A stretch of DNA of 64,000 nt from an uncultured Candidatus Saccharibacteria bacterium (GCA_964634365.1 CAZWJU010000002.1:32069-96068), one strand, 5' to 3'. Counted from the stretch's first letter, positions 10,185-36,963 are shown. The notes: generated from the sequence alone by a model not told the origin. A program made the numbers and translations.

Positions 10185-10991
10185 TTAGAAAAATAAACTA
10201 CTTAAAAATCTAGAGAGTGATTCGAAAGATGTTCCGAAAATATATACAAACAATGTTCCAAATACTAAAAACGGACCAAAAGGAATCTCACTTTTCATAG
10301 TATATCTAGAATGCCTAGCTATTAGAAGTATTATAGAAACGATTGCACCCACCCAAAAAGAAATCATGAGAGCCGCAATCCCGTGAGATAGACCGAGGAA
10401 AAATCCCATACCCATCATGAGCTTTAGATCGCCAAAACCCATCAGTCTACCTTTTGATAAAAGCCAGAGTATATAAAAAGGTAGTGGTATGAGTATCCCT
10501 GCAAAAGCATCTATAGGATCTGGGGTAATAATCCCATAAGCATTTGAAAACATTCCCAAGAAACTAACCAAAATAAAAGTGTAGACTAAGGCGTTTGGAA
10601 TAATCTTGTGACGAATGTCGTATACAGCTATCACTATAAGCAATGAAGCCATAAACATAGAATATATAAGTGGAGCAACAGTAACGAAAGAAACTGTTTC
10701 AGAAGATAAGAACTTATTGGCTAGAAATACAAAGATAAAAGCTGTAGATATTTCAACAAGTGGGTATTGGATAGAGATTTTTGATTTACAAACTGAACAC
10801 TTACCACGTAAAAATATGTAACTGAAAATCGGAAAAAGTTCATACCAATGAAGAGTCTTGCCACAAGACAGACACATGGATCTACCACCTAGTCCCCAAC
10901 CAGTCTGGTAACGGTATATAACAACATTCAAGAAACTTCCGATAAAGAGTCCTAGGATAAATATTATAAATATTGGTAAAAAAGTATTCAT
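10185..10991 (-). CDS. pilD: Prepilin peptidase (A24 family)
   Basis: N-terminal CxxC...CxxC zinc tetracysteine, multi-TM, conserved Asp-containing GFGDLKL block. Confidence 0.85.
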   Translation of the reverse strand: MNTFLPIFIIFILGLFIGSFLNVVIYRYQTGWGLGGRSMCLSCGKTLHWYELFPIFSYIFLRGKCSVCKSKISIQYPLVEISTAFIFVFLANKFLSSETVSFVTVAPLIYSMFMASLLIVIAVYDIRHKIIPNALVYTFILVSFLGMFSNAYGIITPDPIDAFAGILIPLPFYILWLLSKGRLMGFGDLKLMMGMGFFLGLSHGIAALMISFWVGAIVSIILLIARHSRYTMKSEIPFGPFLVFGTLFVYIFGTSFESLSRFLSSLFF

Positions 10992-10998
10992 TTATATT

Positions 10999-11511
10999 TT
11001 ATGGTACTAGGTCGTAACATTTTCCACCAGCAGGCTCTATAGCAGTACCCTTGCAAGACTGTGTATCATCGCCACGAATAGAGTCGGAATTTAAGCCGTT
11101 TAGGTTATCACATAGGTTTAGACCAGTCCCTATTAAACCTGTATTTGTAGATGTAAGGTCACGATCAGTTTGCAATACGTTATTATTTTTTTCTAAAGAA
11201 GTACCAATATGATATGAAGAACATTGACCACCAGACCCACCCAAGCCTATGTAATATACTCCAGTTGGAAGTGAGGGTATGTATGTTGGAGAGAGAGTTG
11301 CTGCTGTCTGAGGATAGTAACCATTTGCGCTGAAATATAAATTCAACGCATTGACCACAGATTTTAATTCTGTAATTTTTTTTGTATCGCGACCACCGGC
11401 ACGTGCTGATGAAACCGAAGCGAATATTACAGAAGCTATAATTCCGATTATAGCAATAACGATAAGGAGTTCCAAAAGAGTAAAACCTTTAAAGTTTTTA
11501 TATTTTTTCAT
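10999..11511 (-). CDS. Type IV pilin
   Basis: KGFTLLELLIVIAIIGIIA class III signal; 170 aa. Confidence 0.75.
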   Translation of the reverse strand: MKKYKNFKGFTLLELLIVIAIIGIIASVIFASVSSARAGGRDTKKITELKSVVNALNLYFSANGYYPQTAATLSPTYIPSLPTGVYYIGLGGSGGQCSSYHIGTSLEKNNNVLQTDRDLTSTNTGLIGTGLNLCDNLNGLNSDSIRGDDTQSCKGTAIEPAGGKCYDLVP

Positions 11512-24362: not shown

Positions 24363-24449
24363 GGAGGATTGGGTGAGTGGTTGAAACCAGCAGTTTACTA
24401 AACTGCCGACCTGTAAAAAGGTCCGTGAGTTCGAATCTCACATCCTCCG
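24363..24449 (+). tRNA. Type II Ser-like tRNA with unusual anticodon loop TTACTAA (apparent anticodon ACU)
   Basis: GGAGGAT acceptor, 3-bp D-stem, anticodon stem GCAGT/ACTGC, long variable arm, T-arm identical to tRNA-Ser(GCU), discriminator G. Confidence 0.6.
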
Positions 24450-24453
24450 CAAA
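24432..24453 (+). repeat. att-like direct repeat copy 1 (tRNA 3' end, cgaatctcacatcctccgcaaa)
   Basis: 22-nt sequence repeated exactly at 24573-24594 and with one deletion at 26275-26293. An inverted 11-mer TGCGGAGGATG lies at 24473-24483. Confidence 0.7.
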
Positions 24454-30313: not shown

Positions 30314-31204
30314 TTATTTAGAAACACTGTCGCTGTGAGACACTATTTCTTCAGCAACTTTCGGCAGATACTTGGTTATCATCTTGTAGTAAAGATCGAA
30401 ACTCTCTACCTGAAAGTACTCAATCTGGAGTTTCGTAATATCATACTCTGTATACATCGCTTGGCGAATAAAATTCTTCATCGCAAGCGGACTATCTCCA
30501 CACGAGTGTATCGTAGGCTTCGAACTTGTCGCTGCATAAAGCGTTTCGCCAACCGAAGAAAGGATACCCGGGCCAGCAATACGACGATCACCATGACCAC
30601 GAACAAGTATGAATTCCACCAAAAACCAAAATGCGGGTGGAAGCAACTTCATAACTTCTGGTGAGAAATTATATCTCTTTGCGACAATACCAAACATCTG
30701 AAGACATTCTCCATATTTCTTGAGAGTGAGCATCGGTAGATGCCCAAAAACTTCATGAAACATGTCTGGAGCTGGTGTGTATTGCCAGTCCTTCAGACTA
30801 CGAAAAAAGTTTGTAACCGGAAACATCTTTTTCATGAGTCCGTAATACAAAATATCGTCATCGAGAGTTCCGTCGCAGATATATATCTGCCACCCGGTAA
30901 GTTTTTTTAGACGACGATTGATTTCTGAAAATACCGGGATCTTGTCCCCTGTAATACCAAGCTTCTTCAAACCTTTGAAGAAAGCTCTGTGTGCAATATA
31001 CTCCAACTGCCTAGTTTGATTCTCCCAAAGGAGCCTCCAGGTTTTTTGGTCATCTTCGGTGTATTTTTCGTACTGCTGAACCTCATCGAGATTTCGACGA
31101 GCAAGTTTATTGAAACGCGACTTAACGCTCTCTTCTAAGGCTTTTTTCATTGTGCTATTTTTCATCACTCTACACTGAAAAAGAGATAGTGGCAAGTGTG
31201 CCAA
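30314..31204 (-). CDS. phhA: Aromatic amino acid (phenylalanine-4-) hydroxylase-like, biopterin/iron dependent
   Basis: Iron-binding block PDMFHEVFGHLPML (H-x4-H) and downstream GPGILSSVGE (GAGLLSSxGE-like), characteristic of PAH/TyrOH catalytic domains. True start is probably an internal Met (MKNSTMKK.. or MKKALEES..). Confidence 0.6.
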   Translation of the reverse strand: MAHLPLSLFQCRVMKNSTMKKALEESVKSRFNKLARRNLDEVQQYEKYTEDDQKTWRLLWENQTRQLEYIAHRAFFKGLKKLGITGDKIPVFSEINRRLKKLTGWQIYICDGTLDDDILYYGLMKKMFPVTNFFRSLKDWQYTPAPDMFHEVFGHLPMLTLKKYGECLQMFGIVAKRYNFSPEVMKLLPPAFWFLVEFILVRGHGDRRIAGPGILSSVGETLYAATSSKPTIHSCGDSPLAMKNFIRQAMYTEYDITKLQIEYFQVESFDLYYKMITKYLPKVAEEIVSHSDSVSK

Positions 31205-31257
31205 AAACTTTGAAAAAATTCTCTAAATAAGCTAATATCAAAGTCTAGCCGATATAT

Positions 31258-31331
31258 CCACCCTTAGCTCAGTTGGTTAGAGCACAGAGCTTATACCTCT
31301 GGGGTCCTTGGTTCGAATCCAAGAGGGTGGA
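31258..31331 (+). tRNA. tRNA-Ile with UAU anticodon
   Basis: CCACCCT-TA-GCTC AGTTGGTTA GAGC A CAGAG CTTATAC CTCTG GGGTC CTTGG TTCGAAT CCAAG AGGGTGG A; perfect cloverleaf. Confidence 0.8.
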
Positions 31332-31339
31332 CATGACAG

Positions 31340-31366
31340 AAAAATGCCAACTGCTTGGCATTTTTT
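31340..31366 (+). terminator. Intrinsic terminator (AAAAATGCCAA ctgc TTGGCATTTTT) nested inside an outer GGACATG/CATGTCC inverted repeat
   Basis: Read directly after the tRNA-Ile. Confidence 0.65.
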
Positions 31367-31453
31367 GGTACATGTCCAAGGCGCAGTGATGTTTTGCGAG
31401 CACGCAAAACCACGAGCCGGGCGATCAGCAGATTCGTGCCGTGAGGCTTCGCG

Positions 31454-31513
31454 GAAAAATACGACCCAGTAGGTCAATGTGCTCATTGAGCGACGGCGAG
31501 TATTTTATCCGTG
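31454..31513 (+). ncRNA. Conserved ~60-nt structured intergenic element, copy A (candidate small RNA or cis-regulatory element)
   Basis: 55/60 identical to 36417-36476. Contains the hairpin GTCAATG tgct CATTGAG, whose single mismatch sits at a different position in the two copies. Confidence 0.4.
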
Positions 31514-31569
31514 ACGACAAACAATATGCTAATATGTTTATATATTTATAAAATAATTTATTTAAACCT

Positions 31570-32040
31570 ATGAACGAATTTGGAGCTAAAAAATTAGGAG
31601 AAGTACTAGCGTTTGCAATCGTGGGTGAAGAAACAATAGAAAAAGGAAGAGGGGTGCTATCCCCTGTTTTAGGCGAAAACGAAATCGCAGACATCCTAGA
31701 GAAAAATCGTATTTATGGAGACGAGCTAAAAAAACTCGCGAGCGAACTTGGTGTAAGCGATATAGTAAATACTAAACTCGAAAAGACTGGTGCTAAGCTT
31801 CGAGAGATGCGAGAGCTCTATATCGGAGATCAGTGGGAGAACCCAACTGAAATACTCGAGTGGTCAGGATTCTTTGAGGGTGCAGCATTTGTACACTGGG
31901 GACTTGTAAAAGGTGTGGCAGAAACTTTAAATCACGAATTACTCATGTCACTTGCAAATGAATGCATGAACTTCCACCATGATCTACTAGACACAATATC
32001 TTCCGAACTACAATCAGTCGGACAAAATAAAGCAGAATAA
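31570..32040 (+). CDS. Hypothetical protein (156 aa)
   Basis: ORF with good coding character, preceded by copy A of the conserved element; no family recognised. Confidence 0.5.
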   Translation: MNEFGAKKLGEVLAFAIVGEETIEKGRGVLSPVLGENEIADILEKNRIYGDELKKLASELGVSDIVNTKLEKTGAKLREMRELYIGDQWENPTEILEWSGFFEGAAFVHWGLVKGVAETLNHELLMSLANECMNFHHDLLDTISSELQSVGQNKAE

Positions 32041-35946: not shown

Positions 35947-36330
35947 GGGAATGTAAGGCATCGACAAGGAATCAGTTTTGTACAGTGCGTGCCGAGCTCG
36001 CGCGAAACGCTCGTAAAACATCGCGCAAAACTCAAATGCAAAAACATTTGGTAAGGTAACATCACCATACTTCGGTATGGCTGATCTTGCTCTCGCTCGA
36101 GCTTAAGCTCGCGAGTGTCTCTGTGTTCGACTTCCGATAAAATACAGAGGCAACATATATCGGGATAGAAAAATATCACGTCTCAGATAATTTTCGAAAC
36201 AATTGAGAATCGAGTAAATATTATTTTGTTCATTTTATAGATACCTACTCTAAACAAATAAAATAAACTATGCATGTAGATTCTATATGAAACCTTCTTT
36301 GCACGGGGGTTCAACTCCCCCCATTTCCAC
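35947..36330 (+). ncRNA. ssrA: tmRNA (ssrA)
   Basis: Starts 4 nt after the smpB stop. 5' GGGAATG pairs with 3' CATTTCC; conserved GTGCGTGCCGAG...CTCGTAAAACATCGCGCAAAA near the resume region; 3' tRNA-like end GCACGGGGGTTCAACTCCCCCCATTTCCA. Predicted tag frame ends ..GMADLALARA-TAA (36104-36106). Confidence 0.85.
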
Positions 36331-36343
36331 TAGTAAAATATTT

Positions 36344-36370
36344 GCGCCCAAAAGGCGCTTTTATTTTTTT
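36344..36370 (+). terminator. Intrinsic terminator (GCGCC caaaa GGCGC + T-run) within a long hairpin that includes the tmRNA 3' end and an inverted copy TAGTGGAAATG at 36371-36381
   Basis: Read directly. Confidence 0.6.
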
Positions 36371-36416
36371 AGTGGAAATGAGTGAAGTGTCTGCACACTT
36401 CAGAGGAAGAAGTGAA

Positions 36417-36476
36417 GAAAAATATGACCCAGTAGTTCAATATGCTCATTGAACGACGGCGAGTATTTTATCTGTG
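36417..36476 (+). ncRNA. Conserved ~60-nt structured intergenic element, copy B
   Basis: 92% identical to 31454-31513; located after the tmRNA terminator and ~68 nt upstream of an unrelated small gene. Confidence 0.4.
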
Positions 36477-36543
36477 GCCAACTCCCTCAAATCCCCTTTG
36501 ACACTCCCCTCTTTTTATGATTAAATAAAAAAAATGTTAAAAT

Positions 36544-36963
36544 ATGATACTCGAACACACTTTAAAAACCCTAATAGAAAAAAAGGAAGGGAGTGAAATT
36601 ATTTTAGAATTTTGGCATAAAGGAAAAGTTTTTCGTGCCTGTCTTGAACAGTGTCATATGGAAAGAAAAACAAAGATAGTATTTTTAAAATTCAAAGATG
36701 CTATCTTTTATGAGAAGCAGCGAAAAGAGTGGGTGCAAGCGGGGCGAGATATGTTTTCCTGTATGTGTTTCAATACAGAAGAAGATACATGTGAGATCGC
36801 AAAAAGCGGCACGGTGAATTTAAACTCAAAAATTTTTGGGAAGGTTACAATATTCCCAAATGGGCAAATTCACAACAAAGATGTCTCTGGTGGGTACTAC
36901 CGACAAAAAAGCACAAACCAGCAAATACTGGCAGAGACAACAAAAAACCTCTGTCAAAACTAA
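36544..36963 (+). CDS. Hypothetical Cys/His-containing protein (139 aa)
   Basis: ORF preceded by copy B of the conserved element; no family recognised. Confidence 0.45.
   Translation: MILEHTLKTLIEKKEGSEIILEFWHKGKVFRACLEQCHMERKTKIVFLKFKDAIFYEKQRKEWVQAGRDMFSCMCFNTEEDTCEIAKSGTVNLNSKIFGKVTIFPNGQIHNKDVSGGYYRQKSTNQQILAETTKNLCQN

Follow-up and report, generated by a model that had tools for sequence, protein, structure and literature searches.

A stretch of 64,000 nucleotides (nt) from an uncultured Candidatus Saccharibacteria bacterium (GCA_964634365.1, CAZWJU010000002.1:32069-96068; the whole stretch is referred to below as the window) carries two units of a real, conserved and structured intergenic element that is absent from Rfam 15 and had not previously been cataloged. 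The element occurs in a subset of Patescibacteria with Paceibacteria-like genomes, where it lies 3′ of the genes for tRNA-Ile, transfer-messenger RNA (tmRNA) and RplL, and in kind it belongs with the intergenic mosaic hairpin elements or with the orphan structured RNA motifs. The starting point of the analysis was a prediction, made from the sequence alone, that had singled out a repeat of about 60 nt present at 31454-31513 (copy A) and 36417-36476 (copy B). This repeat is the upper part of a hairpin, designated P3, plus the tip of that hairpin, within a larger, hairpin-rich element. We tentatively favor the interpretation, held with somewhat less than even confidence, that the element is transcribed and acts in cis, as a modular RNA structure within the 3′ trailer or 3′ untranslated region (UTR) of very highly expressed genes.

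To our knowledge, Patescibacteria have tiny genomes with little spare DNA, and their non-coding RNA is almost wholly undescribed; literature searches returned nothing relevant on any such motif in this group. Being G+C-rich, covarying and built of several helices, and listed in no database, the element is a concrete candidate for lineage-specific RNA biology, with possible roles in the 3′-end formation, protection or insulation of very abundant transcripts.

Anatomy of the element

Copies A and B are identical at 55 of 60 positions without gaps, are both on the + strand, and lose their similarity exactly at the 60-nt borders. A degenerate 47-mer derived from them matched the 64-kb window exactly twice, at copies A and B, whereas no match was expected from 100 shuffles. 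The original prediction was accurate about this repeat and about its surroundings. Copy A follows tRNA-Ile(UAU) and its terminator and ends 56 nt before an open reading frame (ORF) at 31570 (156 amino acids (aa), ORF156), and copy B follows the tmRNA gene and its terminator and ends 67 nt before an ORF at 36544 (139 aa, ORF139). The two encoded proteins gave no BLASTP match to one another and are unrelated, which bears out the proposal that the repeat is not part of a duplicated gene. The inner hairpin, TCAATG-TGCT-CATTGA, likewise has the described single imperfection at different positions in the two copies, G·G in copy A and A·C in copy B. The housekeeping genes ftsH and smpB are located between the copies.

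Folding and comparison with relatives gave a common plan consisting of a closing stem (P1), a helix (P2), a G-rich joiner and P3. In P2 a closing helix of 3 bp leads through a conserved asymmetric internal loop (5′ GGA / 3′ GA) to an inner helix, which ends in a tip that varies among units. The joiner contains two extra small hairpins in copy A and in L034, a homologous locus from a Ca. Nomurabacteria metagenome-assembled genome (MAG). P3 comprises ~15 bp. Its lower stem, (G)UCGNGG/CCNUGA(C), includes a G·U pair, its upper stem is rich in A and U, one A of the 3′ strand is bulged, and the tip is again variable.

At the tRNA-Ile site of the window the full element (element A) spans 31373-31519 on the + strand, ~147 nt, and is homologous over its whole length to L034 6709-6856. 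Its G+C content is 54% compared with 37% for the genome, and such a G+C-rich island would, by analogy with structured RNAs in A+T-rich genomes, favor an RNA. The minimum free energy fold has -55.5 kcal/mol (z = -3.4). Within a closing stem TGTC/GACA, P2 (31380-31418) reads GGC-GCA-GTG ... CAC-GA-GCC and bears an AGCA-capped hairpin at 31391-31410, and the small hairpins of the joiner are GATC-AGCA-GATT (~31423-31434) and GCC-GTGA-GGC (31438-31447). P3, at 31449-31515 on the + strand, was delimited from pair counts in the alignment, from RNAalifold and from a match to a covariance model (CM) of P3, CM R1, at 31443-31519 (63 bits). Its 5′ strand is TCGCGGAAAAATAC (31449-31462), its 3′ strand GTATTTT-A-TCCGTGA (31500-31514) and its tip 31463-31499; the conserved G·U is G31451·T31512, and the bulged A is at 31507. 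Copy A thus covers the upper two thirds of P3 plus the tip. Inside this tip, and with GA on each side, is an optional 25-nt module, CCCAGTAGGTCAATGTGCTCATTGA (31465-31489, + strand), which contains the inner hairpin (31474-31489) preceded by CAGTAG. Removal of the module leaves GA...GCGACGGCGA, which is the short tip found in relatives.

The element at the tmRNA site (element B, 36411-36477, + strand) is a reduced unit consisting of the P3 hairpin without P2, and was matched by CM R1 at 36405-36482 (56 bits). It has a weak lower stem, an upper stem AAAATAT/GTATTTT with a U·G pair, a bulged A at 36470 and the full tip (36426-36462) with the 25-nt module at 36428-36452. In its lack of P2 it is unlike the units at the tmRNA sites of L034 and of two further loci, L126 and L163, which have P1, P2 and P3.

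Perfect 6-bp hairpins capped by AGCA (or by TGCT, on the other strand) were found only inside elements, at every locus examined, and none was found in related loci that lack the element. These hairpins are a signature of the element family, and the 25-nt module carries a hairpin of the same kind in inverted orientation. The repeat itself was correctly recognized in the original prediction, whereas its status as a self-contained unit of ~60 nt does not hold: the element is modular, extends ~80 nt further 5′ in copy A, and has as its tip an optional 25-nt insert. For annotation, the functional object is the whole P1-P2-P3 element, and the 60-nt repeat should not be handled as a unit.

Covariation and strand

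The pairing of P3 was evaluated in an alignment of 11 P3 hairpins, which represent few lineages and include several orthologs from close relatives. Standard pairs made up 90.8% of the cells, compared with 38–47% when the 3′ partners were slid by 1–3 columns, and 9 of the 15 pairs of the stem showed changes on both sides. The covariation score was reached by 0 of 500 shuffles, a statistic that overstates independence because several of the units are orthologs of close relatives. RNAalifold alone predicted the upper stem and bulge of P3, with compensatory changes in 7 of 10 pairs. Compensatory versions of the outer stem in relatives include AAAATAC/GTATTTT, AATTC/GAATT and TTTTGC/GCAAAA, among others, and the inner hairpin contributed one compensatory pair, G-C to T-A in L096. 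Selection on structure, which had been suggested from the two copies in the window, is in this way supported by relatives, through the outer stem and one pair of the inner hairpin.

The same pattern extended to the remaining helices. The middle pair of the P2 closing helix occurred as G-C, C-G and A-U and the inner helix in six sequence versions; the GA on the 3′ side of the internal loop was the same in all 8 units. The hairpin at 31391-31410 differed by two compensatory pairs from its counterpart in the 92%-related L126.

With regard to strand, the wobble cells of P3 comprised 19 G·U on the + strand versus 6 A·C, which would be G·U on the - strand; one G·U was kept in 9 of 11 units, and with this single conserved pair set aside the evidence is a modest 10 versus 6. 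An RNA from the - strand is less likely, since the G·U pairs favor the + strand 19 to 6. As a separate observation, a weak terminator-like site is present on the - strand of copy A at 31462-31476 (TGACCTACTGGGTCG then TATTTTTCC), and no - strand gene ends there.

Distribution and genomic sites

Species-representative genomes were searched with the pattern GACCCAGTAG-N(14-26)-CGACGGCGAG, with the full tip required. The matches were mostly chance matches in high-G+C genomes, and at least three were real homologs, namely L034, which is homologous to copy A over ~147 nt and not 60, L069, from a Patescibacteria MAG, and L096 (CAZPHJ010000037.1). A stricter scan of Joint Genome Institute (JGI) metagenomes, in which the full tip was also required, returned one real match (L125, the same sequence as L069) plus chance matches. 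The record of L096 is titled Candidatus Saccharibacteria, and among named relatives its RplL is nearest to proteins from Pacebacteria, Taylorbacteria or the 'Patescibacteria group'; this disagreement suggests that the taxonomic breadth of the element may be narrower than titles suggest. The 5′ part of a 23S rRNA gene is present ~3 kb downstream in L096. Further loci were fetched via homologs of SmpB and RplL, with flanks of up to 20 kb, and were scanned with CM R1. The element is accordingly conserved beyond the source genome, and the search for more copies had a divided outcome: blastn-short, nhmmer and the covariance model found no third copy in the 64-kb window, and related units were found in other Patescibacteria.

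Units were identified at four independent sites. They follow tRNA-Ile(UAU) in the window, L126 and L163, tRNA-Ile(GAU) in L069, and tmRNA in the window, L034, L126 and L163, and in L096, L166 and L168-L170 they are located ~25–30 nt past the stop codon of rplL. At all four sites the orientation of the unit is that of the upstream gene. Beyond the tRNA-Ile, tmRNA and rplL sites, the covariance model found no units in ~300 kb of related DNA. Several arrangements would place the unit in the upstream transcript rather than in a leader: in L163 no terminator intervenes between tRNA-Ile and the unit, in L126 three tandem units are flanked by two terminators, and at the rplL site (L096, L166, L168) the unit precedes the terminators, with the next gene of L096 being convergent. 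The tRNA-Ile with anticodon UAU is itself present in the lineage at 31258-31332 of the window and 3417-3491 of L034, as well as in L126, L163 and L165. The 156-aa ORF (31570-32040), which has no Pfam match, is a conserved neighbor of this tRNA gene, being 45–87% identical in L126, L163 and L165.

These contexts bear on two functions offered in the original prediction, a shared cis-regulatory leader and the terminus of islets that target tRNA and tmRNA genes, neither of which was sustained. Taken together as one reading, in which the element is a remnant attachment site or islet boundary at tRNA and tmRNA genes or else a leader or riboswitch for downstream genes, they are largely refuted, and we consider them very improbable. 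It is true that tRNA and tmRNA genes are classical integration sites and that both window copies are upstream of small ORFs on the same strand. However, no integrase or recombinase was found nearby, housekeeping genes separate the two copies, there is no second boundary copy, and the sequence after each terminator is an inverted copy of the gene 3′ end, not the direct repeat of an integrase attachment (att) site. ORF156 also adjoins tRNA-Ile(UAU) in L165, which lacks the element, and is thus an old neighbor rather than cargo. As for a leader, the downstream genes are unrelated and vary (ORF156, ORF139, a 145-aa ORF, the atp operon) with no recurrent related set; in L096 and L126 a terminator and a gene on the opposite strand come after the element, with no co-oriented gene downstream, and no riboswitch family matched. 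At the tmRNA site, moreover, element B is separated from the ORF at 36544 by a stretch that contains a TTGACA box (36497-36502, + strand), which by eye reads as a probable -35 box. The automatic promoter scan called no promoter in this region, and the box is conserved in L126, L128 and L132, with TTGATT-16-TATAAT in L034, so that it is present in relatives with and without the element.

Modularity and turnover

The composition of the element changes rapidly among genomes whose proteins are 85–92% identical. At the tRNA-Ile site there is one complex unit in the window, three tandem units in L126 and one simple unit in L163, and at the tmRNA site the reduced unit of the window compares with complete units bearing other tips in L126 and L163. 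The P3 tips found were CAGCAG, GAGCGACGGCGA, CAAGCGGCGGCGAA and the 37-nt tip of copies A and B, which equals the short tip GAGCGACGGCGA plus the 25-nt module. This module is present in the window and missing from the orthologous unit 1 of L126, and at the rplL site, with identical boundaries, it is present in L096 and missing from the orthologs L166 and L168-L170. That one 25-nt hairpin should repeatedly be present at, or missing from, the tip of another hairpin constitutes a clean natural experiment on module movement. Copies A and B have in common an upper stem and tip that are not those of the units found at the copy-B site in L126 and L163. Fast turnover of parts by insertion, deletion and exchange would make copies A and B more alike than copy B and its positional counterpart in a close relative, and we infer from this likeness that copies within one genome have probably been exchanged, as in gene conversion. 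Two independent Logan assemblies, SRR12487045 and SRR12486993 (L003, L004), are 100% identical to the window and both begin at exactly 31424, within element A, which suggests a graph branch caused by another copy or by strain variants.

Such turnover is also what would be expected if the element were a selfish, DNA-level palindromic repeat of the kind represented by repetitive extragenic palindromic sequences (REPs) and bacterial interspersed mosaic elements (BIMEs), BOX elements or Rickettsia palindromic elements (RPEs). We judge this explanation, the main rival to a structured RNA, possible but on the whole unlikely. According to it, the modules would be spread by recombination or by a hairpin-recognizing enzyme, for example a REP-associated tyrosine transposase (RAYT) or an IS200-type Y1 transposase, RNA-level effects would be a by-product, and the 25-nt module, with its GTAG head and palindrome, would be REP-like and would have been inserted in the tip of another hairpin. 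The patchy distribution, with empty sites in close relatives, the differences in module number and kind among closely related genomes, including the three tandem units of L126, and the sharing of upper stem and tip by copies A and B but not by L126 and L163 at the copy-B site are all consistent with it. So are the gain and loss of the module at the same GA/GA-flanked boundaries at two unrelated loci, a core that is near-identical in distant genomes whose stems differ, and the break of both Logan assemblies at 31424, which suggests a repeat or population variation. The sequence of the module may fit as well, consisting of CAGTAG and a 6–7 bp palindrome with a TGCT loop (GTCAATG-TGCT-CATTGAG). 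The opposite strand of the hairpin at 31391-31410 and of its L126 ortholog likewise reads GTGG (window) or GTAG (L126) plus a palindrome with a TGCT loop, so that one kind of hairpin appears in both orientations, as REPs do in BIMEs; the other hairpins are without such a head.

Against a selfish repeat stands, first, its very low copy number. Many dispersed copies, as expected of REPs and BIMEs, were not found, there being 2 sites in the 64-kb window and none further in the ~300 kb of related loci. Every unit adjoins tRNA-Ile, tmRNA or rplL in the same orientation, and the features that are conserved without being palindromic (the internal loop of P2, the G-rich joiner, the G·U pair and the bulged A) exceed the needs of a palindrome. 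No terminal inverted repeats (TIRs) or convincing target duplications were seen, and no transposase, and specifically no RAYT or Y1 gene, was found among the Pfam matches of genes called in the fetched loci or the 8 neighboring ORFs of the window. Were the element a selfish repeat nonetheless, its kinship would be with REP/BOX-type repeats, from which an unusually low copy number and a specific position would set it apart.

A candidate 3′-trailer RNA

The interpretation that we tentatively favor, a modular structured RNA in the 3′ trailer, would proceed as follows. The element would be transcribed on the + strand within the 3′ trailer or 3′ UTR of the upstream gene, either when the terminator is read through or, at sites with no terminator in between, directly, and it would act in cis at the RNA level. 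Its compact structure, either nuclease-resistant or protein-binding, may define, protect or process the 3′ end of the upstream transcript or insulate it from the next gene, and in evolution the modules would be gained, lost and exchanged among few copies per genome. The compensatory changes in several helices, the excess of G·U pairs on the + strand, the invariable orientation and the apparent position within the upstream transcription unit in L163, L126 and at the rplL site are among the observations that point this way.

Besides the limits on the covariation statistic and on the wobble count given above, several observations weigh against this interpretation. In a palindrome, template switching of DNA can also produce compensatory changes, even if no selection acts on the RNA. 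The element is rare, with at least three real matches in species-representative genomes and one in JGI metagenomes. It is also dispensable. L128 (SmpB 78% identical) has an empty site in which the tmRNA is followed by the terminator and the TTGACA box with no unit, and in L165 (69%) tRNA-Ile(UAU) is followed after ~25 nt by the ORF156 ortholog (45% identical). Both elements of the window lie behind a strong intrinsic terminator and would therefore be contained in read-through transcripts only. Finally, the proposed role is argued from analogy.

An RNA might instead act in trans, as a small RNA (sRNA) or as a ribonucleoprotein scaffold or sponge released from the trailer of tRNA, tmRNA or rplL, in the manner of sRNAs that derive from 3′ external transcribed spacers or 3′ UTRs. 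Such an RNA would bind protein at its several AGCA-capped hairpins and at an internal loop in the tip, AGUA/GA(C), that resembles loop E. Several hairpins do share the same loop and vary in number per unit, unpaired nucleotides in the tip and the P2 loop are conserved across distant genomes, and a trailer position in abundant transcripts would give high expression without a separate promoter. Scans detected no promoter or defined 3′ end belonging to the element at the window sites, however, close relatives lack the element, and the 'conserved' tip is optional; nor was there a candidate partner or target complementarity, as matches to the 60-mer elsewhere in the window did not exceed 12 nt. We therefore regard a trans-acting RNA as quite improbable.

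A more ambitious version of the 3′-trailer interpretation, which strikes us as unlikely, is that the element represents a Patescibacteria-specific class of structured RNA with a specific biochemical job in tRNA-Ile, tmRNA and rplL trailers, in which the P3 tip additionally hosts a mobile or exchangeable module of 25 nt. It is similarly doubtful that such a class would be defined by the junction of P1, P2 (with its GGA/GA loop) and P3 (with its G·U and bulged A), with the AGCA-capped hairpins as decoration. If this were so, the job could be the recruitment of a processing or quality-control protein, or self-cleavage that releases the upstream RNA, and the 25-nt tip hairpin would be among the smallest discrete mobile or exchangeable modules described.

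Other candidate classes

The Rfam search proposed in the original prediction matched no family, whether riboswitch, ribozyme, sRNA, group II intron D5-D6, signal recognition particle (SRP) RNA, 6S, RNase P or other: Rfam 15 gave no match at gathering thresholds over either copy, none at E <= 10 over 31200-31650 and none at E <= 5 for the homologs in L034, L163, L096 and L069. Comparison with the hammerhead, group II D5/D6, SRP domain IV, K-turn, rrn boxA, MS2-type ANYA hairpin and attC showed that each fails in at least one invariant position or in the order of its elements; this comparison with consensus features was made by eye, and none of these candidates has support from Rfam. A riboswitch or 5′ leader was rejected on the grounds given above. 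P3 is not an intrinsic terminator on the + strand, being followed by GACGACAAAC in copy A and GCCAACTCCC in copy B, with true terminators upstream of both. Kissing of the AGCA loops with the TGCT loop of the module was discarded for lack of covariation, the loop being TAGT in L034 and ACCA in L069.

A coding function was rejected as well. A short ORF ([A/G]TG CTC ATT GAR CGA CGG CGA...) can be read in copies A and B, where the differences exchange one start codon for another or are synonymous, but has no start codon in L034, varies in length and is deleted in L126; the three open translations of the core gave no candidate in a collection of 5.8 billion proteins.

Among mobile and array-type elements, a miniature inverted-repeat transposable element (MITE) was rejected. 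No clear TIR or target site duplication emerged between filled sites (window, L126, L163) and empty ones (L128, L165), and the module is flanked only by GA. The ends of P3 (GTCGCGG...CCGTGAC) have no AAC/GTT cores of an integron attC site on either strand, the tandem units of L126 have no ORFs between them, and there is no integrase. Searches of phages gave no match, those of plasmids one 23-nt chance match only, and those of viral contigs with two patterns only chance matches. Tandem interspaced guide RNA (TIGR) arrays, which are found in the candidate phyla radiation (CPR), were excluded too: they consist of 36-nt tigRNAs or stem-loop units with two 8–12-nt spacers beside a Nop-domain Tas gene (PMC12045711), whereas the units described here are 70–150 nt long, show no spacer periodicity and have as neighbors the genes for a biopterin hydroxylase, ORF156, ftsH, smpB and truB, with no Tas gene.

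Flanking genes and repeats

The gene content of the window includes recG, ftsH, smpB, truB and infC-rpmI-rplT, and its G+C content is 37%. Taken with the nearest relatives of its proteins, these features assign the window to a Paceibacteria-like member of the Patescibacteria. The tRNA-Ile gene (31258-31332, + strand) was called by ARAGORN and by the Rfam tRNA model (69 bits), with a promoter-like TTGAAA-17-TAATAT upstream at 31210-31238 from the promoter scan. Its terminator (31340-31366, + strand), consisting of an A-run, the hairpin GCCAA-CTGC-TTGGC (31346-31359) and a T-run, was read by eye, the hairpin not being listed by the automatic terminator scan. The tmRNA gene (35947-36330, + strand; ARAGORN, Rfam 137.5 bits) is followed by the terminator GCGCC-CAAAA-GGCGC plus a T-run (36344-36370, + strand; terminator scan), by the 11-mer TAGTGGAAATG (36371-36381, + strand), which is the reverse complement of the tmRNA 3′ end CATTTCCACTA, and by a hairpin, H1 (TGAAGTGT-CTGC-ACACTTCA; 36383-36402, + strand). 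The position of H1 after the tmRNA terminator is conserved, with a counterpart in L034 that has the same place and loop and another stem (CGAAACAC-CTGC-GTGTTTCG), and one also in L126.

Inverted copies of gene 3′ ends occur just after both terminators, as CATTTCCACTA/TAGTGGAAATG (36319-36381) for tmRNA and as GGACATG (31327-31333)/CATGTCC (31370-31376) for tRNA-Ile, so that each terminator hairpin caps a stem that is far longer. This enclosing stem covaries, with CGGTTCCACTG/CAGTGGAACCG at the tmRNA site of L034 (6495-6565) and with ATG/CAT in the window, TAG/CTA in L126 and AAG/CTT in L163 at the tRNA-Ile site. Its distal arm would be present only in read-through transcripts.

Repeats of other kinds were observed at related loci. 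The tmRNA of L134 (Ca. Nomurabacteria CP060230.1) has a ~65-nt unit repeated three times upstream and a ~32-nt unit repeated four times downstream (10720-10900, 11310-11440), with two small GIY-YIG genes nearby, and these tandem arrays suggest that tmRNA flanks are repeat hot spots in the group. L171 (4370-4510; also L172-L180), from a lineage in which RplL and the L096 protein are 88% identical, has a different element at the rplL 3′ flank, in which a G+C-rich multi-hairpin core that includes CCGCG-AGCA-CGCGG and GCGCC-GTAG-GGCGC is enclosed by a perfect A/T-rich inverted repeat of ~35 bp; CM R1 did not match it. Elsewhere in the window, ARAGORN called a second tRNA-Ser at 24363-24450, adjoining tRNA-Ser(GCT), with the anticodon ACT (loop TTACTAA). 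A serine tRNA with A34 is unusual in bacteria.

Comparison with known systems

The closest parallels to the element are REPs and BIMEs, known from Enterobacteria and Pseudomonas and associated with RAYT transposases. Both are imperfect palindromes in 3′ intergenic spacers, transcribed in the case of REPs and presumably so here, and mosaics of few hairpin types, arranged in tandem and in both orientations and variable between close strains, and the 25-nt module may resemble a REP in its GTAG head plus palindrome. REPs serve as 3′ stabilizers of RNA, the same role that is proposed here. They occur, however, in tens to hundreds of copies genome-wide, compared with 2 co-oriented sites in 64 kb, 3′ of tRNA-Ile, tmRNA or rplL in the genomes examined. 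Unlike REPs, the element has a multi-helix junction with conserved unpaired nucleotides, and no RAYT gene was among the fetched loci and neighboring ORFs.

BOX elements of Streptococcus pneumoniae and RPEs of Rickettsia share with the element a modular construction (boxA-boxB(n)-boxC-like), in which the internal modules vary in number. They are likewise predicted to form stable RNA structures and occur in genomes that are reduced or host-associated, and RPEs have even been described within a tmRNA gene. The element differs from both in having no sequence similarity to them, a much lower copy number and a specific position, and the covariation of its helices between genomes is stronger than would be expected of recently spread selfish repeats.

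Comparison can also be made with the 3′ external transcribed spacers (3′ETS) of tRNAs and with 3′ UTR RNAs, such as 3′ETS-leuZ of E. coli, which are structured RNAs located 3′ of a tRNA in the same primary transcript, as the element would be if transcribed, and bounded by a terminator, as is seen in L126 and L096. Known RNAs of this type pair with sRNAs and are not modular repeats, whereas the element has no complementarity in the window. Orphan structured RNA motifs of the Breaker/Weinberg type in Rfam, lastly, are G+C-rich islands in A+T-rich genomes with covarying helices, variable helix tips and conserved junction nucleotides, all of which the element has; it is set apart from them by its absence from Rfam 15, its dispensability between close relatives and the several paralogous versions per genome.

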